The notes beneath the pieces are model-generated. The model saw nothing but the letters and a program-made list of their open reading frames with translations. It had not been told where the DNA came from and did no database searches. DNA of 64,000 nt from Gemmatimonadota bacterium (GTDB taxonomy: Bacteria > Gemmatimonadota > Gemmatimonadetes > Gemmatimonadales > GWC2-71-9): the NCBI GenBank assembly GCA_039588295.1, contig JBDHAB010000004.1, positions 64,001-128,000 of the forward strand. Reading direction: 5' to 3'. Below, piece after piece: positions 46,729-64,000 of this stretch (position 1 is the first letter of the stretch; each line of letters starts with the position of its first letter). The translations under genes and the position numbers were made by a program.

Positions 46729-48749
<2,021 letters not shown>

Positions 48750-48814
48750 TCGGGTGGGGTTTCTCTAAGCCTTTCTCTGCCAACTGGTTAGGGTCGAGCG
48801 CAGAGGTCCCGCGA

Positions 48815-48840
48815 TGTCCGGCGGCGAGGGCCGCCGGACA
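48815..48840. terminator. Hairpin between dciA and gyrB
   Basis: Perfect 11-bp inverted repeat TGTCCGGCGGC/GCCGCCGGACA. Confidence 0.55.
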
Positions 48841-48894
48841 GCCCTCGGAGGCGGACGCGCCTGGCACGCCGACCCTGGCGGTCGGGCGCCCCGG

Positions 48895-49197
48895 TTACTC
48901 TGCGCGCCACACGATTCTGCGGATCTTTTTCCCCCGTTGACCGAGCTTGCGAAGGATCTCCGGCGACATGAGCTGCAGCTCCTGCATCCACGCGGCCGAC
49001 GCGACGCTCACGATCAGCGTACCGTCCCGAGTGACGAAGTGCGGTGTGGTCACCGTGGCGATTTGCGGCCCGACCAGCTGATCCCATTCGGGAATGACGC
49101 TTGCCTGATCGAGTCGGCGCTTGATGCCTCGGCGTTTGATGTAGGCCTCGAGTGCCTCGTCCATCGGCGTCACCGGGGTCTTCTTTCTAGCGCTCAA
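48895..49197 (-). CDS. dciA: DUF721 / DciA family protein
   Basis: W..LVGPQIA, GTLIVSVASAAWMQEL; located between recF and gyrB. Confidence 0.85.
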   Translation of the reverse strand: MSARKKTPVTPMDEALEAYIKRRGIKRRLDQASVIPEWDQLVGPQIATVTTPHFVTRDGTLIVSVASAAWMQELQLMSPEILRKLGQRGKKIRRIVWRAE

Positions 49198-50257
49198 TCG
49201 TGCCTCCTCGCATGGACCACCGCGGTCGGTCGAGCAGTGACGCAGGAACCTCGGACTCCCGGGGTGCAGCGATCACGGCTTGGCCCGGCAGTGTCTCGCG
49301 AATCAGCGCCAGCAAGTTTGCCTGGCGTTGCTCGTCGAATTCAGCGAAGACATCGTCGTAGAGCGCAATGGGGGCCACGCCTCGCGTCTCGCGAATCGTC
49401 TCCGCTTCCACCAAGCGCAACGCCACCGCCGCCGTTCGCTGTTGTCCTGCCGATCCAAACGTCCGCAACTCCTTCCCGTTCAGCACCAACGTCAGGTCAT
49501 CCCGATGCGGCCCCACGGTTGTGACACCGCGCCGGGCATCGCGTTCGGCGGCGCGATCCAGCGCATCCAGAACCACCGTGGGTGAATCGATCTCGCGATG
49601 ATGGTCCGCCGCGTAGTCGATCGCGGGGGATTCCGTCTCGCCGAGTGCGAGGCAGAAGTCGCGGTAGCGGGCAGCCCAACGCGCGGTCCACCGCCGACGC
49701 GCAGCGGCGACGGCGGCGGACGAGGTGGCAAACGGGGCGTCGAACGCCCGGGCAGCGTCGCCATCGGCTCGGCGAAGCGCCGCGTTCCGCTGCTTGAGCG
49801 CCTGCCGCATCGTCGAGAGGGACGCCAAATACCCAGGTTCGCTCAGCGCGAGGAGGATGTCCAGATACCGCCGCCGTCCCGCTGGTCCACCGGCAACCAC
49901 CGTGCGGTCGGCGGGAGAGAGCGCGACCGCGACGACGCTCCCGACACCGTCGGCCAGTTTCTTGAGCTCTCCCCGGTCAATCGTCACCTTCTTGCGCCGA
50001 CCGGCGACCTCGTAGCCGACGGTGACGCGATGGCCGGCGGTGCCGGCGATGAAGAATCCATCCTCCTCGAACCGTACGAGTTCGCGGTCCTTGGCGCCAC
50101 GCAGTGAGCGGAACAGGACGAGGTAGTAGATCGCCTCGAGCAGGTTGGTCTTGCCGTGGCCGTTGGGACCGATGACTACGACGCCTTCCGGTGGAAGTTC
50201 GAGGTCGAGTGCGGCGAAGTTGCGGAAGTTCCGTGCGACGAGCTGTGTCAGCTGCAC
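49187..50257 (-). CDS. recF: DNA replication/repair protein RecF
   Basis: NFRN, GPNGHGKTNLLEA, GPHRDDL, GSAGQQR and DDVFAEFD. Confidence 0.96.
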   Translation of the reverse strand: MQLTQLVARNFRNFAALDLELPPEGVVVIGPNGHGKTNLLEAIYYLVLFRSLRGAKDRELVRFEEDGFFIAGTAGHRVTVGYEVAGRRKKVTIDRGELKKLADGVGSVVAVALSPADRTVVAGGPAGRRRYLDILLALSEPGYLASLSTMRQALKQRNAALRRADGDAARAFDAPFATSSAAVAAARRRWTARWAARYRDFCLALGETESPAIDYAADHHREIDSPTVVLDALDRAAERDARRGVTTVGPHRDDLTLVLNGKELRTFGSAGQQRTAAVALRLVEAETIRETRGVAPIALYDDVFAEFDEQRQANLLALIRETLPGQAVIAAPRESEVPASLLDRPRWSMRGGTIER

Positions 50258-51410: not shown

Positions 51411-52136
51411 ATGCCTCAACAGCTCCCCCGACTGGCCGTGGTGTTCGTGCTCGCCATCGTGGGACTGGTCGTAGCGCGCCAACTACTCATTCCAGAGACC
51501 TTTGGCGACCGCGGTCACTATCGGGCGGCAGCGGTCGACTCGATCGCCGCCCACGAGAAGAAGTACGCCGGCCACCAGGAATGCGCGCTCTGCCATACCA
51601 ACGTCGCCGAAGTGCGGGCTGAGGGGAACCATCGAATGGTGTCGTGTGAGGTCTGCCATGGGCCCGCGGCCACCCACGTAGCGGCGCCGCTCGACGTGAA
51701 ACCGCCGATTCCGCGCAGCCGCGATCTTTGCGTGTTGTGCCACGCGTATAACCCGTCGCGCCCAACGGGCTTTGCCCAGATCGATTCCGTCGCGCACAAT
51801 CCTCGCATCCCCTGCTCCCAGTGCCACGAACCCCACGCGCCCGAGCCGCCGGCGGTGCCACAGGAATGCGCTGCCTGCCACGGTCAGATTGCCAGCCAGA
51901 AAGCGGTCTCCCATCACTGGGCGCTCGATTGCACCACGTGTCACCAAGCGCCGGAAGAGCACAAGCTGAACCCTCGGGGGGTTCGACCCACGAAGCCGGT
52001 GAATCGGGCGTTCTGCGGCGGCTGTCATGCAATGGGTCCCGGCGCGGGCGACATCCCGCAAATCGACCTGCGGACCCACGGTGAGCCCTACCTGTGTTGG
52101 CAGTGTCACTATCCTCATCTTCCCGAGGCGCGGTGA
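51411..52136 (+). CDS. Octaheme cytochrome c, N-terminally anchored
   Basis: 8 CxxCH: CALCH, CEVCH, CVLCH, CSQCH, CAACH, CTTCH, CGGCH, CWQCH. Confidence 0.92.
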   Translation: MPQQLPRLAVVFVLAIVGLVVARQLLIPETFGDRGHYRAAAVDSIAAHEKKYAGHQECALCHTNVAEVRAEGNHRMVSCEVCHGPAATHVAAPLDVKPPIPRSRDLCVLCHAYNPSRPTGFAQIDSVAHNPRIPCSQCHEPHAPEPPAVPQECAACHGQIASQKAVSHHWALDCTTCHQAPEEHKLNPRGVRPTKPVNRAFCGGCHAMGPGAGDIPQIDLRTHGEPYLCWQCHYPHLPEAR

Positions 52137-52951
52137 TGGCGGAACAGGACGAGGTGATCGCACAGGAATCCTCCCGGTCGGGTCACGGAGCGGTGGATCG
52201 ACGGGCGTTCCTGAACGAGATGCTTGCAGCGTGCGCCGGCGGTGCACCGCTCCTCTTGGGGGTTCTGCGGTTGCCCGTTGCGGGAGCGCAAGGTCAAGCC
52301 GGTGCGGCGTACGAGCCGTCAGAGCACTTGTACGGGATGGGGATCGACATTCAGAAATGCATCGGGTGTGCGCGGTGCGTGGTCGCGTGCAAGACCGAAA
52401 ACGATGTACCGCAGGAGCCCCACTTCTTCAATACCTGGATCGAGCGATACGTGCTTCGCGGTGAGCGTGAGGTGGAGGTCGACAGTCCCAACGGGGGCAT
52501 CGACGGATTTCCGCCGCTCGAAAGCCCGGCGGAAATCCGCCGGTCGTTCTTCGTGCCCAAGCTCTGCAACCACTGTGCGAACCCTCCGTGCGTACAAGTG
52601 TGTCCGGTTGGCGCGACGTTCATCACGGAAGACGGGGTGGTGCTCGTCGACGACGAGTACTGCATCGGATGCCGGTATTGCATCCAGGCCTGCCCCTATG
52701 GCGCCCGGTACATGCATCCCGAGAAGCACGTGGCGGCCAAGTGCACGTTTTGTTATCACCGGCTCGTTGACGGTCTCGTGCCTGCGTGCGTCGAGGTGTG
52801 CCCCACCGGGGCGCGCGTGTTCGGAGAGCTCAACGACACGCCGACGCCGCTCGCGCGGTTCATGCGGTTCAACGACCTCCAGGTGCTCAAGCACCATCTG
52901 AACACCAAACCCAAGGCGTACTATGCGAATCTCGACGTCGAGGTGAGCTGA
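52136..52951 (+). CDS. NrfC/DmsB-like 4x[4Fe-4S] protein, Tat signal
   Basis: DRRAFL plus CIGCARCVVAC, CNHCANPPCVQVCP, CIGCRYCIQACP and KCTFC..PACVEVCP. Confidence 0.93.
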   Translation: MAEQDEVIAQESSRSGHGAVDRRAFLNEMLAACAGGAPLLLGVLRLPVAGAQGQAGAAYEPSEHLYGMGIDIQKCIGCARCVVACKTENDVPQEPHFFNTWIERYVLRGEREVEVDSPNGGIDGFPPLESPAEIRRSFFVPKLCNHCANPPCVQVCPVGATFITEDGVVLVDDEYCIGCRYCIQACPYGARYMHPEKHVAAKCTFCYHRLVDGLVPACVEVCPTGARVFGELNDTPTPLARFMRFNDLQVLKHHLNTKPKAYYANLDVEVS

Positions 52952-52953
52952 CG

Positions 52954-54162
52954 GTGCAGGGATACATCTACCCGAACGAACTCGAGCACCAGTGGGGCCT
53001 GCTGATCGTTCTGTACCCGTATTTGACGGGCCTCGTGGCGGGAGCGTTCATTCTCGCGTCGTTGGAGCGGGTGTTCAATGTCAAGGAGGTGCAGCCCACC
53101 TACCGCCTGTCGCTGCTCACGGCGCTCGCGTTCCTCGTGGTGGCGCCGCTTCCGCTCCTGGCCCACCTCGGGCATCCGGAGCGCTCCTTCGAGATCTTCC
53201 TCACGCCGAATCGCCAGTCGGCCATGGCCATGTTCGGGTTCGTGTACGCCTGGTATCTCATGGTCGTGCTGCTCCTGGAGATCTGGTTCGACTACCGGAA
53301 GGACATGGTCCTCTGGGCGCGGAGCGAGCGGGGGTGGAAACGGTGGCTGCACTACGGCCTCACACTGGGAGCGACGGACCTATCGGACAAATCACTCCGG
53401 TTCGATGAGTCCGTCGGGCGCTGGATCACCATCATCGGGATCCCGTCGGCGTTTCTGCTGCACGGCTACGTGGGGTTCATCTTCGGGTCGATCAAGGCGA
53501 ATCCGTGGTGGAGCAGCGTACTGATGCCGGTGGTATTCCTCTTCTCGGCCATCGTCTCGGGCATCGCCTTGGTGCTCGTGCTCTACGTGCTCACTACGCT
53601 GTTCCGGTGGCGCCCGGTCGACATGAAGTGCCTCGACAAGCTCGCGCAGTTCTTGTTCTACGCCCTCGTGGTCGACTTTGCGCTGGAATCATTGGATTTC
53701 ATTCATCGACTGTATGAGGCGGAGGAGTCGATCGAGATCTTGTCACAGATGATGCAGCATCGCCTCACGATTAGCCTAATCGTGCTCCAAGTCCTCATGG
53801 GCACGGTGATTCCGCTGGTGACGCTGGCCCTCATCTCTCCGGGCCTTCGCAAGCACGGCTTCGTCAAGCTGCCGCCGGAGCTGCGACAGCTGATCTACCT
53901 CGTGGCGGCCGTATTGATTCAGATTGGCATCTTCTCGATTCGCTGGAACGTTGTGATCGGCGGTCAGCTGTTCTCGAAGAGCTTGAAGGGCTTGACGGTC
54001 TACCGGGCCGACGTGTTCGGCGTCGAGGGCCTGGTGATGACGATCGGCTTGCTGTGCCTGCCGTTCGTCATCCTGTGGGTTTTGGTCAAGATCCTGCCAC
54101 CGTGGACGGACACGCAGCCCGAAGCGGCCTCCGTGAACGAGGGGTCGCCTGCGGGTACCTGA
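52954..54162 (+). CDS. NrfD/PsrC-family membrane quinone-interacting subunit
   Basis: WGLLIVLYPYLTGLVAG, HLGHPER and RWNVVIGGQ, with many TM helices. Confidence 0.92.
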   Translation: MQGYIYPNELEHQWGLLIVLYPYLTGLVAGAFILASLERVFNVKEVQPTYRLSLLTALAFLVVAPLPLLAHLGHPERSFEIFLTPNRQSAMAMFGFVYAWYLMVVLLLEIWFDYRKDMVLWARSERGWKRWLHYGLTLGATDLSDKSLRFDESVGRWITIIGIPSAFLLHGYVGFIFGSIKANPWWSSVLMPVVFLFSAIVSGIALVLVLYVLTTLFRWRPVDMKCLDKLAQFLFYALVVDFALESLDFIHRLYEAEESIEILSQMMQHRLTISLIVLQVLMGTVIPLVTLALISPGLRKHGFVKLPPELRQLIYLVAAVLIQIGIFSIRWNVVIGGQLFSKSLKGLTVYRADVFGVEGLVMTIGLLCLPFVILWVLVKILPPWTDTQPEAASVNEGSPAGT

Positions 54163-54199
54163 GCACGAGGTGAGACACTCGACGACCTCGGCAGGATGA

Positions 54200-54494
54200 T
54201 GAGTGTTCCCGGCCGGTATTCGGGGCTCTCAACGTCCTCGCCGGTCTCGGCCCGGCGGGGCCACGTTCCACGGCAGCGGCGGTTTCGGGCCGTCCCGCTG
54301 TGCCGCTAGGCGGGGCCTGCGACCTGACCACCGTGGCCGATCTCGGCTCCAACGCCGGAGTCCTCGCTGCGTTATGGAATCATGTCGTTATCTTGGATGA
54401 CAATCCTGGCGCCGCGGCGGCGTGGTCGACGCTGAGCGGGCGTGAACCGGCGGTCTTGGCAGCACTCTTGAAGACCATGAGGGGAGGTCGTTGA
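54200..54494 (+). pseudogene. Possible decayed c-type cytochrome remnant
   Basis: One frame reads GATFHGSGG (CxxCH-like). A different frame reads VLAALWNH...WSTLSGRE.AVLAALL and ends overlapping the next start. Confidence 0.4.
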
Positions 54495-55771
54495 TGGCCG
54501 GATGGCGGATGCCCCGTGTGCTCGCCGTCATGATGCTTGGGGCAGCGACGCACTCATGGTCCGGCCAGGCGCATGCGCAGGAGCCGCCGACTGACAACTG
54601 CCTGAGTTGTCACAGTGTGTTGGACGACGAGCGCCTCTCCGCGCCAGCCAAGGCGTTCCCGGCCGACATTCATGCGGTGCGGGGGCTCGGCTGCTCTGCC
54701 TGTCACGGCGGCGACCCGGCTGCCGGGTTCGATGGCATGGATCCGGCGAAGGGGTTCCTCGGGCGGCCGGGACGGCGCCGTTCGGTGGATCTCTGTGGTC
54801 GCTGTCACTCCGACGCCGCATTCATGCGCCAATACAATCCGTCGCTTCGCGTCGATCAGGTGGCCGAGTATGTCACGTCGGTCCACGGCCGCCGGCTCGT
54901 GGAGCTGGGCGACACAGCGGTCGCGGTGTGTACAAACTGTCACCCGGCACACGCCATCACGCCACCCACCGACCCCGCGTCGAGCGTGAATCCGCTCAAC
55001 GTGGCGAATACCTGCGGGACGTGCCACTCCCAGGCCGACTACATGCAACCCTATGGTCTGGCGACGGACCAACAAGAGAAGTATCTGCGCAGCGTGCACT
55101 GGGAGGCGATGTCCGTGCGGCGGGATCTGTCGGCCCCGACGTGCAACGACTGCCATGGCAACCACGGAGCGGCACCTCCAGGAATCTCGTGGGTCGGCAA
55201 TGTGTGCGGGCAGTGCCACTCGGTGATGGCGGACTATTTTGCTCAGAGCCGGCATGCCAGCACCTTCGCCATGCTAGGCGTTCCAGGCTGCGCGACCTGC
55301 CACAACAATCACGAGATCCAGTGGGCCGGCGATACGCTGTTGGGACTCGGTGAAGGAGCGGTATGCGGCCGCTGCCACGCCGCTGGTGACGGAGGTGGCG
55401 AGACGGCGCGCGCGATGCGTACGCTGGTAGATTCGCTCCGGACCGCGTTCGATAGTGCCCACGCAAAGCTGCTGAAGGCCGAGCGGGCCGGAATGGAAGT
55501 GAGTCAGCCCCTGTTCGAGCTGGGTGGAGCGAACAACGCGTTGATCACAGCGCGCGCGTCGGTCCACTCGTTCGAAGTGCTGAACGTGAAAGAGCCAGTC
55601 GATGAGGGGTTGGCGATCACGGCCACGGCGCAGAGTCGGGGTGAGGAAGCGCTGGGTGAATTGCGGTTTCGCCGGGCCGGATTGGTGATCTCGGTGACGA
55701 TCATCCTCGCGCTCATCCTGGGCCTGTTGCTCAAGATTCGCGATATCGAACGGGCGAAGTCTACGACCTGA
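54494..55771 (+). CDS. Nonaheme cytochrome c, C-terminal TM anchor (paralog 1)
   Basis: 9 CxxCH, Sec signal peptide, helical stalk and C-terminal hydrophobic helix. Confidence 0.92.
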   Translation: MAGWRMPRVLAVMMLGAATHSWSGQAHAQEPPTDNCLSCHSVLDDERLSAPAKAFPADIHAVRGLGCSACHGGDPAAGFDGMDPAKGFLGRPGRRRSVDLCGRCHSDAAFMRQYNPSLRVDQVAEYVTSVHGRRLVELGDTAVAVCTNCHPAHAITPPTDPASSVNPLNVANTCGTCHSQADYMQPYGLATDQQEKYLRSVHWEAMSVRRDLSAPTCNDCHGNHGAAPPGISWVGNVCGQCHSVMADYFAQSRHASTFAMLGVPGCATCHNNHEIQWAGDTLLGLGEGAVCGRCHAAGDGGGETARAMRTLVDSLRTAFDSAHAKLLKAERAGMEVSQPLFELGGANNALITARASVHSFEVLNVKEPVDEGLAITATAQSRGEEALGELRFRRAGLVISVTIILALILGLLLKIRDIERAKSTT

Positions 55772-55788
55772 ACTCACGAGGCAACCCG

Positions 55789-56271
55789 ATGGTTGAGAAC
55801 CGGCCGGCCCCGGAGACGTCGCGCAGGCGCTTCATCGACTGGCTCCTCAGCAGAACGCTCACGACATGGCTGCTGAGCACGAGCGTTGGAGGCCTCTTGC
55901 TCGCGATTCTGTACCCGGCAGGCCGGTATCTCGTGCCGCCGCAGGCCGTGGAGTCGACGTCCGCCTCAGTGACGGTGCCCTTCACGCCGGAAGACTTGGA
56001 GCCGAACACGGGAGAGATCTTCAGATTCGGCAGTCGCGCGGGAATCCTCGTGCGGACGCCGACGGGCGAGCTCCGTGCGTTCTCCGCCGCGTGCACCCAC
56101 TTGGGTTGTATTGTCCAATACCGCCCGGACGTCGGCCACATCTGGTGTGCGTGCCACAATGGTCACTTTGACCTCAACGGCCGCAACATCCAAGGCCCGC
56201 CTCCGGCGCCGTTGGAGACCTACGCCGTCAATGTTCGCGGCGATCAGATTGTCGTGAGCAAGGGGAGCTGA
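55789..56271 (+). CDS. Rieske [2Fe-2S] protein of a Rieske/cytochrome b complex
   Basis: Tat motif SRRRFI, CTHLGC, CACH and GPPPAPL. Confidence 0.95.
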
Positions 56272-56275
56272 GAAG

Positions 56276-57373
56276 ATGGCGTGGTGGGCTGGGTGGATGG
56301 CGCGCGGTGCGACCTGGCTGGACCAGCGTGTGGGACTCGCCGGCGTCATGATGCTTGCGAAGAAGAAAGACGTCCCGGTTCACCGCCACACGATTTGGTA
56401 CTACCTGGGTGGCATGACGCTTTTCCTCTTCGTCGTGCAGATCACCACCGGGATGCTGCTGCTGTTCTACTACCGGCCCAGCGCCGAAGAGGCCTACGAG
56501 TCCGTCCAGTTCCTGATGGCGACGGTGCAGTTTGGATGGCTGGTGCGGTCCATTCATTCGTGGTCGGCGAACCTGATGATCCTCACGGCGTTTCTGCATC
56601 TGTTCAGCGTGCTGCTCATGAAGGCGTACCGGCCGCCGCGGGAGTTGACGTGGTTCTCAGGCATTGGACTCCTTGGGCTCTCCATGGCGTTCGGATTTAC
56701 CGGGTACCTGCTGCCGTGGAATGAACTCGCGTACTTCGCAACGCGAGTCGGGACCGAGATCGTCGGGGCCGTGCCGTTCGTGGGAGATTTCCTGCTCCGC
56801 GTCGCGCGTGGCGGTGATGATGTGACCGGCGCAACGCTCACGCGGTTCTACGCGTTTCACGTCGCGGTGCTGCCTGGAGTGGCCTTCCTGTTCCTTGGTC
56901 TGCACTTGTTCCTCGTGCAGAAACAGGGGATGAGTGTTCCACCCAGCATCGAGCGTGGCGGCGGTGCCAACCGCGTCATGCCGTTCTTCCCGGATTTCCT
57001 GCTGCGCGATCTCGTGGGTTGGCTCACGGCGCTCGCGGTGCTTGCTGCGCTCGCCGCATTCCTCCCGGCCGAGCTGGGCGACAAGGCGGATCCGTTTGCA
57101 CCGGCGCCGGCGGGGATCAAGCCTGAGTGGTATTTCATGTTCATGTTTCAGACGTTGAAATACCTCCCGGGTCACATTCTCGGCATCGAAGGTGAAATCG
57201 TGGGGATACTCGGCTTTGGATTGGCTGGAGCACTTCTCTTGCTGATCCCGATCCTCGATCGCCACACCGCGCGGGGGCAACCGAGCAAGCTGTTTACCTG
57301 GATTGGCGTTGGCGTCATCGCGTACATGATCGTGCTGACCTATCTCGGCTACACGGCGAGTCCCACACAGTAG
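56276..57373 (+). CDS. Cytochrome b of a Rieske/cytochrome b complex, intact Qo motif
   Basis: Four heme His (RSIHSW..FLH; AFHV..GLH), GYLLPW and IKPEWY. Confidence 0.95.
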
Positions 57374-57555
57374 TCCTCAAGTGAGCTGAGTAACGGGGTG
57401 TGGAAGACCGTGTCACTGTCCCGCCGTGGGCCCGAAGTAAGTACAGAGTGAAGGTCTCTTCAGAAACGGCCGCCTCTATTGCCGAGGCATCGGGCCGATC
57501 GTAATGTGTAGTCGATTCGTTCCGATTTTATATGCCTCCGAGGGGGGGTATGCCC

Positions 57556-59136
57556 ATGAGACATCGATTCGTCGGACGGGCACTGCCTGTGATGGTGGTG
57601 CTGGGATTCCTGATCGCGGGTGCCTGCACGGAGGAGACGATCTCCTTCCGTACACCGTTCAACGCGCCGCCAGACGACGTCAACGGATTCCTTGGCTATT
57701 TCTCTGCCGAGGATCGTCAGACGACGTGCGGCAACTGTCACGCGGACACCCAGGTGGAGTGGCGGGAGACGCATCACGCGCATGCGTGGAGCACGCTGCA
57801 GGCCTCCGGTAGCGCGCAGTCGTTCTGCGAGCCGTGTCATACGATCAGTGAGAACGGGAACGCGGTTGAGGGTTCGGCCGGGTATCCCGCACTCGTGTCC
57901 GACCCAACTGCGCCACTGGACAGCGCCGTGATCGCGGTCTATCACGACGTGCAATGTGAGAACTGCCATGGTCCCGGCATCGACCATGTCACCAATCCGT
58001 CCGCGATGCAGCCGCTCGCCTCGATCGCGGTCGCCACCGACGCCACGAACGGCTGCGGCGAATGTCACTCGGGAACCCATCATCCCTTTGTCGAGCAGTG
58101 GGAGGCCTCCGCGCACGGTACGGGCGGCAGCTTCACATATGCCGGGGGTCGTGCCAGCTGCAACCAGTGCCACAGCGCTCAAGGGGCGCTCGTGGAGCAG
58201 TTCGGTGAGAACGCTCGCTTCCTGGAGAAGGATGGCGACCCGCTGCCGATCGTGTGCATCGTGTGCCACGATCCGCATTCCGCGACCTTCAGCGGCCAAC
58301 TGCGGGCCCCGCTCTCAGGGTTCATTACCAACAATCTCTGTATCAAATGCCACAACCGACGAACGGTTCCCGGGGCGGGATCGCGCGGTCCCCACGCCGC
58401 ACAGGGGCCGCTGGTTCTGGGCCAAACCGTCGCGTGGTGGCCTCCAGGGTTCGACTGGCTCGAGGGCCTCACGGCGAGTCACGGTGATACCGACGTGAAC
58501 CCGAGGCTCTGCGGCACGTGTCATGTGGAGATGTTCGAGATCACCGACGCGGCCACGGGCGACTTCGTGTTCCAGAGCGTCGGACACCTGTTCGAAGCCA
58601 TTCCATGCGTGGACGCCCAGGGGATTCCGGTCGGTGGCGACTGCAGCAATGATCAGCGTCGGTTCGATGCCTGTGCCGGGTGCCATGGCTCTGCAGGTGC
58701 CGCGCGAGCCACCTTCGAAAGCTTCCAGGCCGAGCTGGATCTCCTCCTTCAGCAGATCTGGACGGACAGCGACGGCAACGAGATTCTCGACCCAACGGAC
58801 GCGGGGCTGCTCCCCCAGATCGTGGCCGCCGCGGGCGGGAAGGAGCTGGACCGCTCCGATACGCTGTTCACCTTCGCAGAGGGCGTGCTCTACAACGCAC
58901 AGATCGCGGCAACGCACAACGAAGAACAGTTCTTCAGCGGCGACGTCATCGTCGCGCCGGACGACACGGTCCACTTCTCGGCCCACCACACGGCCGGCAA
59001 CGGGGTGCACAACCCCGCGTTCCTCGAGGCGCTGCTGAAGGCGTCGATTCAGGGAGCAGCCGACTTTTACGGGATCGTGCTCCCGGCCGATTTGGACCTC
59101 ACGCTGCCGCCGCTGGCCGAGGCGCGACGGCCGTAG
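57556..59136 (+). CDS. Nonaheme cytochrome c lipoprotein
   Basis: Lipobox AGA-C, 9 CxxCH and C-terminal GVHNP. Confidence 0.9.
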   Translation: MRHRFVGRALPVMVVLGFLIAGACTEETISFRTPFNAPPDDVNGFLGYFSAEDRQTTCGNCHADTQVEWRETHHAHAWSTLQASGSAQSFCEPCHTISENGNAVEGSAGYPALVSDPTAPLDSAVIAVYHDVQCENCHGPGIDHVTNPSAMQPLASIAVATDATNGCGECHSGTHHPFVEQWEASAHGTGGSFTYAGGRASCNQCHSAQGALVEQFGENARFLEKDGDPLPIVCIVCHDPHSATFSGQLRAPLSGFITNNLCIKCHNRRTVPGAGSRGPHAAQGPLVLGQTVAWWPPGFDWLEGLTASHGDTDVNPRLCGTCHVEMFEITDAATGDFVFQSVGHLFEAIPCVDAQGIPVGGDCSNDQRRFDACAGCHGSAGAARATFESFQAELDLLLQQIWTDSDGNEILDPTDAGLLPQIVAAAGGKELDRSDTLFTFAEGVLYNAQIAATHNEEQFFSGDVIVAPDDTVHFSAHHTAGNGVHNPAFLEALLKASIQGAADFYGIVLPADLDLTLPPLAEARRP

Positions 59137-59197
59137 CGGCGAGGGAACGAGCCGCTGGCGAGACCCGTGCGCCGGCGGTTGCCCGAGTGGTGCCGTG

Positions 59198-59230
59198 CCG
59201 GCCCCGCCCTTTGCGAGGGGGCGGGGCCGG
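59198..59230 (+). terminator. Strong intercistronic hairpin
   Basis: CCGGCCCCGCCC/GGGCGGGGCCGG stem with no long U-run. Confidence 0.5.
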
Positions 59231-59308
59231 TTGCATAACAGGGCGTGGCATCACACTGTTCGGCCGTGGTTCGTCGAGTCAACGTCACCCAGTTCGAGCA
59301 GAGGGGTC

Positions 59309-59767
59309 ATGCAGGACACGAGTCAGGCGGAGCGGGAGAGCGGGGGAGTCGGCTTCAACGAGCTGCTCCTTGGCGCCGTCATCGTGCTGATGGTGGTGGG
59401 CATCGGGTTGGGCACGGCGCTCTACGTACTTCCGGGGGAGCATCTCGAGATTCCCGAGTTACAGCCTGCGGTTCGCGTCGTGCGGGAGGAGGATTTTCCG
59501 GTCGGGGCGAGCCGGCTCATTCGGTGGGGGGAGCGGGCCATTTTGGTGGTGCGACCCGCGCTCGATCGATACGTCGCGGTCGAAGGGACGTCGCCAAGCG
59601 ACGGATGTATTTTGCGGTGGGAAGAGGACGCGGTGAGGATCGTCTCGCCGTGCAGCTACGTCGTGTATGACTTGGATGGGAACGCCGTAGCGGGCCTGGC
59701 TACGGCTCCGCTCCAGGCATACTCCGTCTTCGTCCGGGACGGGATCGTCTACGTGGGAGGAGCGTAG
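59309..59767 (+). CDS. Rieske-fold protein lacking all four Fe-S ligands (pseudo-Rieske)
   Basis: Aligns to 55789-56271: CTHLGC->SPSDGC and CACH->SPCS. TM anchor present, no twin-arginine motif. Confidence 0.85.
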   Translation: MQDTSQAERESGGVGFNELLLGAVIVLMVVGIGLGTALYVLPGEHLEIPELQPAVRVVREEDFPVGASRLIRWGERAILVVRPALDRYVAVEGTSPSDGCILRWEEDAVRIVSPCSYVVYDLDGNAVAGLATAPLQAYSVFVRDGIVYVGGA

Positions 59768-59771
59768 CGTC

Positions 59772-61085
59772 ATGCGTCGGACCCTGAACGCGGTGCACGG
59801 CTGGCTCGTCGGTGTGTGGGAGGACATCAAGGCGAGCACCGACTCCAGCCTGCTCGGCATGGCGCGGTTCGTCGGCTTGCTCTACGGTCCGATCGATCGG
59901 AGTCTGCGGATCGATCTGGCCCTCCGCAAATCGCTGCGCTACCGGCTGGCGCCTCAGGTCGGATGGCGTCATGCCCCTGGGGGCGTGACGTACCTCCTGT
60001 TCATCGTGTTGGTGGTGACCGGCGTCTTGATGGCGGCGTACTACCGCCCCTCTGTGGAAGAGGCCTACCCCAGTGTTCAGCACATCGTCTCGGAGGCGCG
60101 CTTTGGCTGGCTGGTTCGCGATCTCCATTACTGGTGTGCGAATCTCATCGTGATTGCGGTTCTCGCGCACATGGCGCGGGTCTTCTTCGAGGCGGCCTAC
60201 AAGCCGCCGCGAGAGACGAACTGGCTCATTGGGCTCCTGCTCCTGTTCGTAGTCTTGGCGTTCGGAGCTACGGGGTACCTCCTCCCCTGGGACCAGTGGT
60301 CGTACTGGACGGTCACGGAGGTTCTGAACGCCGTGGCCCACATCCCACTGGTCGGAAGACCAATCGCGGACGCGGCGATGGGAGACGTGATTCCGTCCGG
60401 TGCCACGCTCAGCCGCTTCTTTGCCCTCCACGTGATCGTGCTGCCCTGGATTGCATTCGCACTCTTGGGCTATCACTTCACGCTCGTTCGCCGCCGCGGC
60501 ATCGCCCCGGCGATGGACAGCGAGGACGAGGCGGCTCGGTGGCGCAGCAGTGGAAAGCACGAGCCGGGGGAGAAGCCGCAGGGCGTGCCGTTCTTTCCCA
60601 CCCACCTCCTGCGATCGTTCTCCGTTGCCGTCCTGACGCTTGCGGTCGCCATCACGCTTGCCGTGCTGTTCCCGCGGGTATTGGCCGACCCCGCCGATCC
60701 GTATGCGCTCCCGGACGAACTGGTGTCGACCTGGGTGCCGGTTGACGTGTCGCTCGCTCTCATCCGACTCGCAGGGCCGTGGGGCTTCGCCCTGTTCACG
60801 CTGCTCGGAGTGAGTCTGGTGTTGATCCCGTTGCTCGACCGAGGGCCGGAACGCCGACTCCGACGGCGTCCGATCGTCGCCACGTTGGGCCTCACCTTCT
60901 TCGTGGGGTATCTGGCGCTGTGGATCGCTGGGCGCGCGATCGGTTCGGTCCCGCCGTCTGCCTCGCTGGGTGAGGCTGTCGAGGAACGGGCGGTCCCGGT
61001 CGGCTCGTCGGCCCGCCCGCCTCAGGTGCAGCCGGCACGGCCGGCCGCTGCCCCGGAGAATGCGGACGAAGGAGGTGGACGGTGA
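59772..61085 (+). CDS. Second cytochrome b: heme ligands kept, PEWY absent
   Basis: RDLHYW..LAH, ALHV..GYH and GYLLPW. The ef-loop reads PDELVSTWVPVDVS. Confidence 0.92.
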   Translation: MRRTLNAVHGWLVGVWEDIKASTDSSLLGMARFVGLLYGPIDRSLRIDLALRKSLRYRLAPQVGWRHAPGGVTYLLFIVLVVTGVLMAAYYRPSVEEAYPSVQHIVSEARFGWLVRDLHYWCANLIVIAVLAHMARVFFEAAYKPPRETNWLIGLLLLFVVLAFGATGYLLPWDQWSYWTVTEVLNAVAHIPLVGRPIADAAMGDVIPSGATLSRFFALHVIVLPWIAFALLGYHFTLVRRRGIAPAMDSEDEAARWRSSGKHEPGEKPQGVPFFPTHLLRSFSVAVLTLAVAITLAVLFPRVLADPADPYALPDELVSTWVPVDVSLALIRLAGPWGFALFTLLGVSLVLIPLLDRGPERRLRRRPIVATLGLTFFVGYLALWIAGRAIGSVPPSASLGEAVEERAVPVGSSARPPQVQPARPAAAPENADEGGGR

Positions 61086-62320
61086 TCGGTGGCGGCGTGC
61101 TCCTGACACTCGTGGGCGTGGTGGCCGCGAGCGAAGGTGGAGGCATCACCGCCACCCGAGCAGCGCTGCCGCAGCGCTCGGTGAGCCAGGACAGCACGTA
61201 CGGGTGTATCGTGTGTCACGCCGATAAGCGGCGCGCCTTCTCGCAGGGCGTGCACGCTGAGCGGGGTATTCGGTGCGAAGACTGTCACGGCGGCGACCCC
61301 TCGCAGTATGAGACACCCGCGGCACATCGGGGACGGTTCGTCGGCTCGCCGACCAAACGGGAGACGGTCGAGCTCTGCGCATCGTGTCACTCCGATCCCA
61401 ACCAAATGCGTCAGTACGGTCTCTCGGTCGACCAGCTCGCCGAGTTTCGCACGAGCCGGCACGGACAGCTGTTGATGGAGCAGCGCAACCGGGACGCGCC
61501 GACCTGCACGGACTGTCACCACGCGCATTTGATTCGGCCTGCGAGCGATGCGCGGAGCGAGATCTATCCCTCCAACATCCCAGGCACCTGCGCGGTGTGT
61601 CATGAGAACGCTTCGTTGATGGCCAAGTACGGGATGCCAACGGACCAGCTGGAGCGCTTCACCGTCGGCGCGCACGGCGTCGCGGTGTTCGAGAAACGCA
61701 ACTTCGCGGCGCCCACATGCATCGGGTGTCATGGCTCCCATGCCGCGCTTCCCCCGGCCGTCGCGGAGATCACCCACGTGTGCGGTAAGTGTCACGTCCT
61801 GCTCGCGCGAGCGTTCTATGAGGGGCCGCACGGGGAACCGGCGCAAGCCGGTGGACTCTCCGGGTGCGTGGGGTGTCACAGCAACCACGGGACGGAACGC
61901 ATCCCCCCGGAGCAGATTGGGGAGCTCTGCACGACTTGCCACGACGCGGAGAGCCGCATGGCCGCGGTGGGCTTCGAGATCGAGGAACAGGTGGGCCGGG
62001 CAGGCGAGGAGCTTGCCGCTGCCGCCGTGGCAATCGACGAGATGGCAGCGAACGGACGGGAAACGGCGGATGACCGGTTCCGCTATCAGGCGGCGTTCAC
62101 GGCCTATCAGCAGCTGGCCAAGGTGCAACACTCGCTCGACCTCGAGCAACTCGAGGAGCTCGGGCGAGAGGTGCGCTCGAACACGGGGATCATTCGCGCG
62201 ACGGCGGAGGCGTACGCGGAGGAACGGTGGGAGCACAAGCTCGTGCTGATCCCTGTCTGGTTCCTCGCGCTTTCGGCACTCGTGTTTGCCTGGTTCAAAC
62301 TTCGAGAGCTAGGACGGTAG
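61082..62320 (+). CDS. Nonaheme cytochrome c, C-terminal TM anchor (paralog 2)
   Basis: 9 CxxCH with the same spacing and motifs as 54494-55771 (CHGGDP, MRQY, DQ.AE..TS.HG, APTC). Confidence 0.92.
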   Translation: MIGGGVLLTLVGVVAASEGGGITATRAALPQRSVSQDSTYGCIVCHADKRRAFSQGVHAERGIRCEDCHGGDPSQYETPAAHRGRFVGSPTKRETVELCASCHSDPNQMRQYGLSVDQLAEFRTSRHGQLLMEQRNRDAPTCTDCHHAHLIRPASDARSEIYPSNIPGTCAVCHENASLMAKYGMPTDQLERFTVGAHGVAVFEKRNFAAPTCIGCHGSHAALPPAVAEITHVCGKCHVLLARAFYEGPHGEPAQAGGLSGCVGCHSNHGTERIPPEQIGELCTTCHDAESRMAAVGFEIEEQVGRAGEELAAAAVAIDEMAANGRETADDRFRYQAAFTAYQQLAKVQHSLDLEQLEELGREVRSNTGIIRATAEAYAEERWEHKLVLIPVWFLALSALVFAWFKLRELGR

Positions 62321-62322
62321 CG

Positions 62323-64000
62323 GTGGCTGAGCAACGTTGGCGCCTGCGGAAGCTGTCGCGGCCCCTCAAGCTGGCGGTGCAGATCGGCGTTCTCGCGATC
62401 ATCCTCGCGACGATTGGCGCGGTGGGGTTCATCGAGTACTCGGGCCAACCGAGTTTCTGTCGCAAGTGTCATGTCATGGAGCCGTACTACCAGTCCTGGG
62501 CGACATCGACGCACAACGACGTGAAGTGCATCGAATGCCACTATGCGCCGGGACTGCGTGCGGAGGCCATGGGCAAGTTCCAGGCGGCGAACCAGGTAGT
62601 GAAGTACGTCACCGGGGCATACGGAACGAAGCCCTGGGCAGAGATCGAGGACGCGGCGTGCTTGCGCTCTGGCTGCCACTCGTTGCGCAAGGTGGAAGGA
62701 GTCGTCAGCTACAGCCCGGGTCAGCACAGCAATGTCATCGTTCGGTTCGATCATACGCAACATCTGGGTGAGCTCCGGCGCGGCAAGCAACTCCGCTGCA
62801 CGAGCTGCCACTCGCAGATCGTCCAGGGCAACCACTTGGCGGTCACGCCGCAGACGTGCAACCTCTGTCACTTCAAGAAACGCGTGACCGCCGATCCGGT
62901 TGCGGACTGCGTCGCGTGCCATCGATCGCCGCCCAGGATCGTGTCGCCGGCCGGGTTCGTGGTCGATCATCCGCAGTACGTCCGTGATCTCGTGTCGTGC
63001 AGCTCCTGTCACCAGGAAGTGGTGAGTGGCACCGGTGAGGCACCGGACTCGCGATGCTATACCTGTCACAACGAACCCGACCGCCTCGCGGAGTTCGACA
63101 ACACCGAACTCCTGCACCGGGTTCACATTGCCGAACACAACGTCGAGTGCGCCCAGTGCCACACGCCGATCGAGCACCGCACGGTCTCGCTCAGCGTCAC
63201 GGCGGAGCTCGACTGTGCGTCGTGTCATCGGAGCGTTCACGAAGCACAGCAGCGCCTGTACGCCGGCATCGGCGGTCACGGCACCGAAACCACGCCGAGC
63301 TCGATGTTCCTGGCGCGTGTGTCCTGCGAGGGCTGTCATGAGCTGCGCAAGGAGATTCGCGGGCACGAGCAGGTGAACCTGGCCGGTGAGGCATCGTGCC
63401 TCTCGTGTCACGGCATCCAGTACGCCAACATTTTGCCGTCCTGGCAGCAGGAGATGGATCGCAAGGTCCGGGCGGCGGGTTCGGCGGTTCGTGGAGCGCG
63501 GCGAGCGGCGGGGTCAGGTCCGTCGAGCACGCGCGCTCGGGTCGACAGCTTGCTCGGTCTCGCAGAGGACAACGTCGAGTTCGTGCGGCTCGGTAAGGGC
63601 GCGCACAATATCGCCTACGCCGACCGGTTGCTCCGGGCCAGCCTCGATCTGGCGCGCGAAGCGGTGCGCACCGGGCCGTTGTCGTACCGCGTCCCCAGCG
63701 TCGACCTGGGTCCCGAAATCGGTGAGAATGTCTGCTTACAGTGCCATTTGGGAGTCGAGCGGCGGACCGTGACGTTCCAGGGTACGAAGTTCAACCACGA
63801 GCGTCACGCGGTCGACGCAGGTCTGCCGTGCACCAGCTGTCACACGGGCCTCGATGACCATGGGAAGAACCTGCTCTCGAGCACCGCAGACTGCGTCGGC
63901 TGTCATCATCGAGAGGTGAGTCCAGAGACCTGCGCGCATTGCCACGCGGGTCCGGGAGGCGCGCCCGAACGCGTGGTGAGCCATCCCGTGGGGGACTTCC
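62323..64000 (+). CDS. Large multiheme cytochrome c with NapC/NirT-type N-terminus (runs off the window)
   Basis: Hand-translated, absent from the track. TM helix, then PSFCRKCHVMEPYYQSWATSTH. 15 CxxCH plus one CLRSGCH before the edge. Confidence 0.92.
   Translation, partial: MAEQRWRLRKLSRPLKLAVQIGVLAIILATIGAVGFIEYSGQPSFCRKCHVMEPYYQSWATSTHNDVKCIECHYAPGLRAEAMGKFQAANQVVKYVTGAYGTKPWAEIEDAACLRSGCHSLRKVEGVVSYSPGQHSNVIVRFDHTQHLGELRRGKQLRCTSCHSQIVQGNHLAVTPQTCNLCHFKKRVTADPVADCVACHRSPPRIVSPAGFVVDHPQYVRDLVSCSSCHQEVVSGTGEAPDSRCYTCHNEPDRLAEFDNTELLHRVHIAEHNVECAQCHTPIEHRTVSLSVTAELDCASCHRSVHEAQQRLYAGIGGHGTETTPSSMFLARVSCEGCHELRKEIRGHEQVNLAGEASCLSCHGIQYANILPSWQQEMDRKVRAAGSAVRGARRAAGSGPSSTRARVDSLLGLAEDNVEFVRLGKGAHNIAYADRLLRASLDLAREAVRTGPLSYRVPSVDLGPEIGENVCLQCHLGVERRTVTFQGTKFNHERHAVDAGLPCTSCHTGLDDHGKNLLSSTADCVGCHHREVSPETCAHCHAGPGGAPERVVSHPVGDF

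Follow-up and report, generated by a model that had tools for sequence, protein, structure and literature searches.

What can a Rieske protein do that has lost every ligand of its [2Fe-2S] cluster, when it is encoded directly upstream of a cytochrome b that has lost the PEWY motif of the quinol-oxidation (Qo) site? This question is raised by two genes in a 64,000-nucleotide stretch of a Gemmatimonadota genome (positions 64,001 to 128,000 of the forward strand of contig JBDHAB010000004.1, assembly GCA_039588295.1), which is referred to below as the window and corresponds to G000:C4:64001-128000 in the labels of this analysis, where G denotes a genome, C a contig and L a locus. The first gene encodes a pseudo-Rieske protein (psISP) and the second a cytochrome b (b2); an intact Rieske/cytochrome b module (ISP1 and b1, 55789-57373) lies upstream. 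In a preliminary description of the window, psISP and b2 were taken for the inactive half of a heterodimer with this intact module. The present analysis indicates that the losses in psISP and b2 are old, correlated and selected, and that the two genes belong to a unit of four co-translated genes in fixed order, psISP-b2-mhcD-mhcE, in which mhcD and mhcE encode multiheme cytochromes c. The product of this unit is probably a descendant of complex III without the Rieske cluster and the Q-cycle, in which hemes bH and bL would serve as a wire from a quinone site on the cytoplasmic side to a chain of 30 c hemes and psISP would be only a structural clamp; it may also form a half-active heterodimer with the intact module where one is present.

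Lost catalytic motifs in psISP and cytochrome b2

The psISP open reading frame (ORF; 59309-59767) is uninterrupted, and the ribosome-binding sequence GAGGGG lies 3 nt upstream of its ATG. Relative to the intact ISP1, psISP carries SPSDGC for CTHLGC, SPCS for CACH and GLAT for GPPP, and the twin-arginine motif SRRRF is absent; the two disulfide cysteines, C100 and C115, are present. All of this, together with the coordinates of the altered boxes and the loss of PEWY from b2, agrees with the preliminary description. An AlphaFold model of psISP (predicted local distance difference test, 88.8) contains one transmembrane (TM) helix and a Rieske fold, and its best match in the Protein Data Bank is the Rieske domain of Chlorobaculum (8hn2, root-mean-square deviation 1.5 Å). 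In an alignment of 120 listed homologs among 129 found, the cysteine ligands of the cluster are retained at neither site (0/120): the first is occupied by Ser in 79, Ala in 36, Gly in 4 and Asp in 1, and the second (Ser113) by Ser in 120/120. The statement that all four ligands are replaced by Ser is therefore correct for the source genome and does not extend to the family, in which Ser is invariant at the second Cys site alone. The sites of the His ligands vary freely, with His in 4/120 sequences at the first (1/42 in the phylum genome set described below) and in 0/120 at the second. The disulfide cysteines are kept (C100 in 119/120, C115 in 120/120), and the tip of the protein has acquired the near-invariant residues Pro96, Asp98 and Leu130, of which Asp98 (117/120) stands where intact Rieskes have Leu after the ligand His. 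The RRxF motif for twin-arginine translocation (Tat) occurs in 0/84 psISP sequences, and [RK]RxF in 19/20 ISP1 orthologs. The observation made on psISP is thus real and conserved, and not a product of chance.

The named relatives belong to Gemmatimonadota. In the ESM Atlas, the top cluster is the family of psISP itself, with 248 members and Gemmatimonadota as the commonest phylum, and two clusters of Actinomycetota are matched at 0.89-0.90; a HMMER search of 50% representatives gave 27 matches at 1e-10, which, among the matches listed, are mostly members or fragments of the psISP family, followed by ordinary intact Rieskes. An iron-sulfur cluster built from the remaining Ser, Asp and Cys of psISP was considered and rejected, since positions 95, 97 and 116 are too variable. 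A mononuclear metal site or a redox-active dithiol may be built by the leftover residues.

The b2 alignment comprised the query together with 100 homologs, drawn from the 119 others that were listed among 1062 found. As described earlier for the window, the four heme histidines (H119, H133, H220, H235) are kept (101/101) and PEWY is lost (0/101); its place is taken by S[T/S]W followed by V, I or A. The residue at the WGA glycine of the Qo site is Thr180 in 96/101 sequences, and Glu183, which is new in b2, is present in 98/101; in comparison, b1 has PEWY and Ala at the WGA glycine in 34/34. On the cytoplasmic side, Arg240 (101/101), Arg281 (101/101), His278 (97/101) and H67 are conserved. A heme cn Cys was not found in the b2 alignment, in which no Cys precedes GG. 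Structure comparison gives a full cytochrome b fold; among solved sequences b2 is closest to cytochrome b6 (2zt9, E 5.6e-49), and its best NCBIfam match is ExtP (NF040969), at 212 bits and below the cut-off of 290.

The loss of PEWY is by itself no proof of lost bifurcation, because mutants of the PEWY Glu are described as retaining much activity (PMC7908018) and the variants APWY, PPWY and SxWF are on record (PMC4122944, PMC5600118). Bulkier residues at Rh G158/Sc G143 are described as obstructing Qo binding (PMC7908018); this is the WGA glycine position, which Thr180 occupies in b2. Bifurcation depends on the Rieske cluster as acceptor at Qo, according to the passages on this point in two accounts (PMC5600118, PMC7908018); a module lacking the cluster has no high-potential acceptor to offer at Qo, and bifurcation and the Q-cycle are on this ground taken to be excluded. 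Judged from the sequences, canonical Qo chemistry is impossible in psISP/b2. The module resembles bc1 and b6f complexes in the four heme His, the full fold and the Arg at the b6 N-side position of b2, as well as in a TM-anchored, Rieske-fold subunit with a disulfide that is encoded just upstream; unlike them, it has no [2Fe-2S] ligand set, Tat motif, PEWY or heme cn Cys, carries Thr at the WGA glycine, and has 9- and 21-heme cytochromes in place of c1/f. On this comparison it is by descent a Rieske/cytochrome b operon, but it lacks the cluster and a canonical Qo site and is not classed as a working bc complex.

The distribution of the module was determined in 401 genomes of the phylum, in which psISP was called at E<1e-39 (next value 6e-14) and b2 at E<1e-120 (next value 1e-84). 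With this clean gap in scores, psISP and b2 are found in the same 42/401 genomes; b2 stands directly after psISP in all 45 loci drawn, as well as in L086, and mhcD and mhcE lie downstream of b2 wherever contig ends and runs of N permit. The co-occurrence of psISP with a PEWY-less b2 in 42/42 genomes, together with the absence of the Tat motif from all 84 psISP, bears out the earlier suggestion that the losses are correlated. Two apparent b2-mhcD fusions (L064, L073) were rejected: both loci contain N-runs, one of which is read through in L064, and in L073 the last b2 helix is missing and an mhcD-type signal peptide is still present.

A decaying duplicate of the intact module would account for the lost catalytic residues, and the median ratios of nonsynonymous to synonymous substitution (dN/dS) lie slightly above those of the intact module (psISP 0.34 and b2 0.28 vs ISP1 0.25 and b1 0.19, from pairs with dS<1.5, that is, 630/861, 668/820, 370/561 and 472/528, in which saturation inflates the values). 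This explanation is already refuted and keeps practically no probability: psISP matches are full-length and uninterrupted by stop codons across several families (42 genomes), the Nei-Gojobori dN/dS of psISP and b2 in the closest pairs quoted is 0.09-0.17, far below 1, the new residues are invariant, and the ancestry of b2 is separate from that of b1. Among pairs lacking b1, the dN/dS values are 0.078/0.75 for psISP of G056/G321, 0.087/0.70 for psISP of G076/G269 and 0.096/0.58 for b2 of G076/G269. The G+C content at third codon positions is 0.79-0.81 in psISP, b2, ISP1 and b1. The earlier dismissal of recent decay is upheld by conservation and dN/dS, and not by the codon argument that accompanied it, according to which each Ser codon requires two base changes; that argument is weak because TGC to TCC is a single change, TCC is found there in relatives, and synonymous sites are near saturation.

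Partners of cytochrome b2

An obligate b1/b2 heterodimer, as first proposed, would contain one [2Fe-2S] cluster per four b hemes and one active Qo site. It is favoured by the adjacency of the two modules in the source genome, in three genus-mates and in genus g20, and by their parallel sets of subunits (identities of 32% for mhcB/mhcD, 32% for ISP1/psISP and 40% for b1/b2). The earlier picture of the subunits was right about the psISP/b2 pair and omitted its constant partners mhcD and mhcE, which give b2 a full subunit set of its own, parallel to that of b1. The genome counts, which are plain tallies over kin that are not independent, largely refute an obligate partnership: a b1 ortholog (called at E<1e-100 in psISP/b2 genomes and at E<1e-120 in b1-only genomes) is present in 31/42 psISP/b2 genomes and absent from 11/42, and 18/49 b1 genomes have neither psISP nor b2. 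The expectation that psISP and b2 always stand next to the intact pair fails as well, b1 lying within 25 kb in only 23/31 genomes with both, often rearranged or on the opposite strand. In G296 (L038:12128-13203), b1 is divided between two overlapping ORFs, owing to a frameshift or an assembly error, and the b2 module is whole.

Where b1 is absent, b2 shows no decay, and b1-lacking b2 sequences occupy several positions in quick trees, interspersed with b1-bearing ones. A single clade of b1 and b2 was rejected by the approximately unbiased (AU) test (p-AU 0.035) on an LG+G4 tree of 21 rows, from which L142 and most b1 and b2 rows were left out; b2 shares its side of the tree with the G006/G009 and L132-L141 operons (support 89/92, on a branch that is not starred), and b1 and b2 are thus not sister paralogs. 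Of 15 gene pairs compared across 24 genomes, b1 and b2 show the poorest agreement between their distance matrices (Spearman correlation 0.14; b1-mhcB 0.66, b2-mhcD 0.50), by a weak measure that yields only 0.31 for psISP-b2 itself. A complex prediction with two copies of b2 (8-390) and b1 (8-222) gave 0.00 and 0.00 against a mark of 0.32, with controls not folded, and was counted neither way. Given the genome counts, the selection on b2 without b1 and the separate ancestry, an obligate b1/b2 heterodimer is unlikely, and only a slim chance is left to a complex of that stoichiometry.

A looser form of the idea is that b2 pairs facultatively, or promiscuously, with an intact partner, from which electrons would arrive through a bL-bL bridge; b2 would add a b-heme wire and the mhcD/mhcE output, and psISP would fill the second Rieske position. 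Such pairing would explain how the b2 hemes are supplied with electrons without a Rieske cluster, and some intact Rieske/cytochrome b is present in 40/42 psISP/b2 genomes. Besides the linkage of b1 described above, 9/11 b1-lacking genomes carry an unrelated intact Rieske/cytochrome b, which lies 10-20 kb from psISP in 4/11 and on another contig in G207, G076, G321, G397 and G333. Engineered asymmetric bc1 dimers (B-B and BS-B fusions) with one-sided defects are described as passing electrons between their bL hemes on the catalytic time scale (PMC4330944); unlike the present case, they are artificial and combine two near-identical cytochromes b. On the other side, a single conserved b2 surface would need to fit members of four cytochrome b families, whose identity to b2 is 31-40%, the two modules are often divergent or convergent and not one operon, and the low b1-b2 distance correlation applies here too. 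No partner was found in G191 (4 contigs, 96% complete) and G269 (20 contigs, 93%), two incomplete metagenome-assembled genomes in which PF00033, PF00032 and PF13631 detected no cytochrome b besides b2 and in which the DNA flanking the loci is free of N-runs. Facultative pairing is, on balance, considered rather unlikely.

Two observations concern the identity of the other cytochrome b. In genus g52, b2 and psISP are similar throughout four genomes (75-83% and 81-90% identity, respectively), while the second cytochrome b differs: G016 has a b1-like one, G076 and G207 have a b-c fusion with 38% identity to b1, and in G269 none was found. In L096, L099, L106 and L121, from four b1-lacking genomes, the unrelated intact pair lies in or beside the multiheme cluster, as if the intact module were exchangeable.

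The operons of G006/G009 and L132-L141 have the gene order of the b2 operon and an intact Rieske. Those of L076 and L077 (G006:C20, G009:C3), from another class of the phylum, are fully intact four-gene operons with CxH/CxxH, PDWY or PEWY, and 9-heme and 20-heme cytochromes; their cytochrome b has Lys at the position of the WGA glycine, and its gene is split in G006. L132-L141 (metagenome; P0406, P0408, P0409) represent a sister lineage and are organized as Rieske-cytochrome b-9-heme-(NrfH-headed multiheme); the cytochrome b has a PPWY-type motif, in which the PEWY Glu is lost, and Arg where the His of helix B would ligate heme bH. To judge from these motifs, L132-L141 lost the opposite arm of the Q-cycle but kept the cluster, and a single operon family contains natural knock-outs of either arm. 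That these relatives lost a different part, as pseudo-enzyme partners might, is a further point for facultative pairing.

A possible path of electrons

The reading that we favour, with some reserve, is that psISP-b2-mhcD-mhcE forms a self-standing four-subunit quinone:multiheme oxidoreductase without a Q-cycle, within an extracellular-electron-transfer cluster and with an electron path that we infer as follows. The module would descend from an intact Rieske/cytochrome b/9-heme/20-heme operon that gave up bifurcated quinol oxidation. Cytochrome b2 would dimerise with itself, and psISP, whose insertion would not require Tat and whose disulfide would form in the periplasm during folding, would clamp the dimer and cap the former Qo pocket. 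Menaquinone would react in a cytoplasmic-side pocket comprising H67, R240, H278 and R281. Electrons would cross the membrane one at a time through bH and bL and reach either a c heme of mhcD close to the membrane or, in the NrfH-like head of mhcE, heme 1; the 30 c hemes would then lead to the porin-cytochrome conduit of the cluster. The outward direction is slightly favoured; here, oxidation of quinol at the cytoplasmic face would consume proton-motive force in order to reach low-potential acceptors. Such transfer would draw on the membrane potential to reduce low-potential hemes, a low-yield role like that of CbcL/CbcBA in Geobacter, and the intact module would serve high-potential acceptors. 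With the same wiring, electrons might alternatively be taken up and reduce menaquinone.

The site of quinol oxidation could also lie elsewhere, namely in the NrfH-like head of mhcE on the periplasmic side, in which case b2 and psISP would mainly support the 30-heme chain as a membrane scaffold, and the b hemes would act as an electron buffer or redox sensor. In NrfH, the residues Lys82 and Asp89 have a role in quinol binding. The head of mhcE matches the NrfH of D. vulgaris (2j7a, E 4.5e-8) and, in a separate comparison, falls below the NrfH cut-off; the heme 1 motif CxxCHxM and Lys82 are found in 40/40 rows from psISP loci, and b2 has neither a Qo motif nor, for the most part, the Qi Asp. Lys82 and Asp89 are both named as conserved in an account of NrfH (PMC4683180), but the Asp89 position of mhcE is occupied by Gln in 30/40 and by Met in 10/40, and likewise by Gln or Met in operons with an intact Rieske; moreover, a pure scaffold would hardly retain the four heme His in 101/101 sequences together with many invariant pocket residues. 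An oxidase in the mhcE head is accordingly judged quite unlikely. Met at the Asp89 position (L043, L044, L047, L050, L053-L056, L065, L072) coincides exactly with the b2 clade in which b1 is mostly missing or unlinked and, being confined to one clade, represents a single event.

Several points weigh against the self-standing four-subunit module. The presence of intact Rieske/cytochrome b in nearly all psISP/b2 genomes, the frequent linkage with b1, the proximity of an unrelated pair in some b1-lacking genomes and the incompleteness of G191 and G269 have been given above, as have the raised median dN/dS values. In addition, the Qi/Qn quinone site has His and Asp in bc1 and Arg with heme cn in b6f; most b2 sequences (80/101) carry Ser at the position of the bc1 Asp, which b1 retains as D245, and quinone chemistry on the N side is therefore not certain. 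The weakest step is the route from bL to a c heme, which we infer. In bc1, this gap is bridged by the Rieske cluster; here, a bL-bL bridge to an active partner would be a simpler solution.

Neighbouring genes and known systems

The two modules lie inside a cluster of ~30 kb (Table 1) with NrfD-/HybB-like modules, multiheme and FdnI-like b proteins, a porin-like protein and a 12-heme protein, the labels outside the window being a reading of ORFs by similarity that was only partly library-scanned. Just upstream of the cytochrome cluster, gyrB- and recF-like genes were recognized from translations at window positions 46729-50257, and a scan of 54000-62400 for promoters and terminators gave nothing above shuffles. 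Downstream of the window, three ORFs that by eye resemble glycine-cleavage-H flank a 4Fe-4S/HybB-like pair and a two-component system within the cytochrome cluster (G000:C4:128676-136288), and separate genes are CbcL/CbcBA/ImcH-like by architecture (G000:C4:136815-141885). An orphan intact Rieske with a Tat-like motif, 63% identical to ISP1, is encoded downstream of a two-component system at G000:C53:9128-9628, with no cytochrome b match on contig G000:C53. At G000:C72:5918-9300 (L098), a third pair of Rieske and cytochrome b genes is accompanied by an 8-heme cytochrome, so that the source genome has two intact modules and the cluster-less one.

Table 1. Features of the window, in window coordinates
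Feature	Position	Strand	Remarks
8-heme cytochrome c, 4Fe-4S protein, NrfD-family membrane protein	51411..54162	+	Further quinone-linked module of the cluster
mhcB, 9-heme cytochrome c of the intact module	54491..55771	+	Context
ISP1, intact Rieske	55789..56271	+	SRRRF, CTHLGC, CACH, GPPP
Cytochrome b1, intact	56276..57373	+	Four His, PEWY; proposed heterodimer partner
mhcC, 9-heme cytochrome c between both modules	57556..59136	+	Often, not always, upstream of psISP
psISP (P0001, 152 aa)	59309..59767	+	One N-terminal TM helix, Rieske fold, disulfide C100-C115; without [2Fe-2S] ligand set and Tat motif
psISP former ligand box 1, SPSDGC (CxHxxC in intact Rieskes)	59591..59608	+	Codons TCG CCA AGC GAC GGA TGT
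psISP former ligand box 2, SPCS (CxCH in intact Rieskes)	59645..59656	+	Codons TCG CCG TGC AGC
Cytochrome b2 (P0002, 437 aa)	59772..61085	+	Long, conserved N-terminal extension; heme His 119, 133, 220, 235; no heme cn Cys; remodelled Qo site (T180, E183, STWV); N-side R240/H278/R281
STWV at the PEWY position of b2	60726..60737	+	S[T/S]W in 98/101 homologs, PEWY in 0/101
mhcD, 9-heme cytochrome c with C-terminal membrane anchor	61082..62320	+	Start overlaps b2 stop; 32% identical to mhcB
mhcE, 21-heme cytochrome c with NrfH/NapC-like membrane head	62323..64000	+	CxxCHxM, Lys82 kept; Asp89 position Gln/Met; runs past the window to G000:C4:128344

The closest described arrangement is Cbc6/ExtMNOPQ of Geobacter (GSU2935-2930), in which a Rieske protein, a cytochrome b and cytochromes with 10 and 12 hemes are reported to be encoded close to a porin (PMC2825233, PMC5877670). 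The gene set is alike, and the SxWF that replaces PxWY in cytochrome b subfamily L (Dibrova et al., 2017), given as SAWF for Gmet_0539/3585 in its Fig. S1 (PMC5600118), recalls the S[T/S]W of b2. The differences are that ExtO is described as a Rieske Fe-S protein, that ExtP is short and subfamily L has CxGG, whereas b2 is long, has no such Cys and is accompanied by a cluster-less partner; the SxW shared by subfamily L and b2 may be convergent, ExtP being absent from the trees.

In its mode of action, the psISP/b2 module most likely resembles, by analogy, CbcL, CbcBA and ImcH of Geobacter, of which CbcL and CbcBA join a diheme b protein to multiheme c and have no Rieske cluster, and ImcH is a membrane-bound multiheme c. 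Unlike the present module, they have no Rieske-fold subunit, and the b subunits of CbcL and CbcBA are not of the bc1/b6 family. The source cluster, whose genes are named by similarity labels, resembles this potential-specific set of quinol oxidases, the members of which are described as differing both in the acceptor potential at which they operate and in the growth yield that results (10.1101/2021.04.15.440034).

A cluster-less Rieske fold is also found in NirD, a soluble cytoplasmic subunit of nitrite reductase that has no cluster. The psISP fold matches 4aiv and 3c0d, and there is a weak Pfam match to Rieske_2; this likeness explains the JGI label 'nitrite reductase/ring-hydroxylating ferredoxin subunit' on psISP, which, unlike NirD, has a TM anchor, a respiratory-type disulfide and a cytochrome b partner. 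A full-text literature search, the coverage of which excluded most subscription journals, yielded no cluster-less Rieske/cytochrome b complex and no natural heterodimer. The available portions of PMC5317091, PMC12954380 and PMC3509893 contain no cluster-less or heterodimeric case, and the main text of a preprint on extracellular electron transfer in peat (10.64898/2026.05.27.727921), as far as accessible, contains no match to the terms of the module. A cluster-less Rieske/cytochrome b module is thus apparently undescribed.

The Rieske cluster defines the cytochrome bc complexes, and a selected family without it shows a second, Q-cycle-free use of the same scaffold. Its members are natural variants with which the role of the Rieske anchor in dimer assembly, direct exchange between b hemes and multiheme c, and natural bc heterodimers can be probed. 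The labels 'Rieske (2Fe-2S) protein' and 'cytochrome bc complex cytochrome b subunit' would introduce an impossible Q-cycle into metabolic models. Roughly one in ten of the Gemmatimonadota genomes sampled carry the module, which suggests that pathways from quinone to the cell surface resembling the set of Geobacter are present there.

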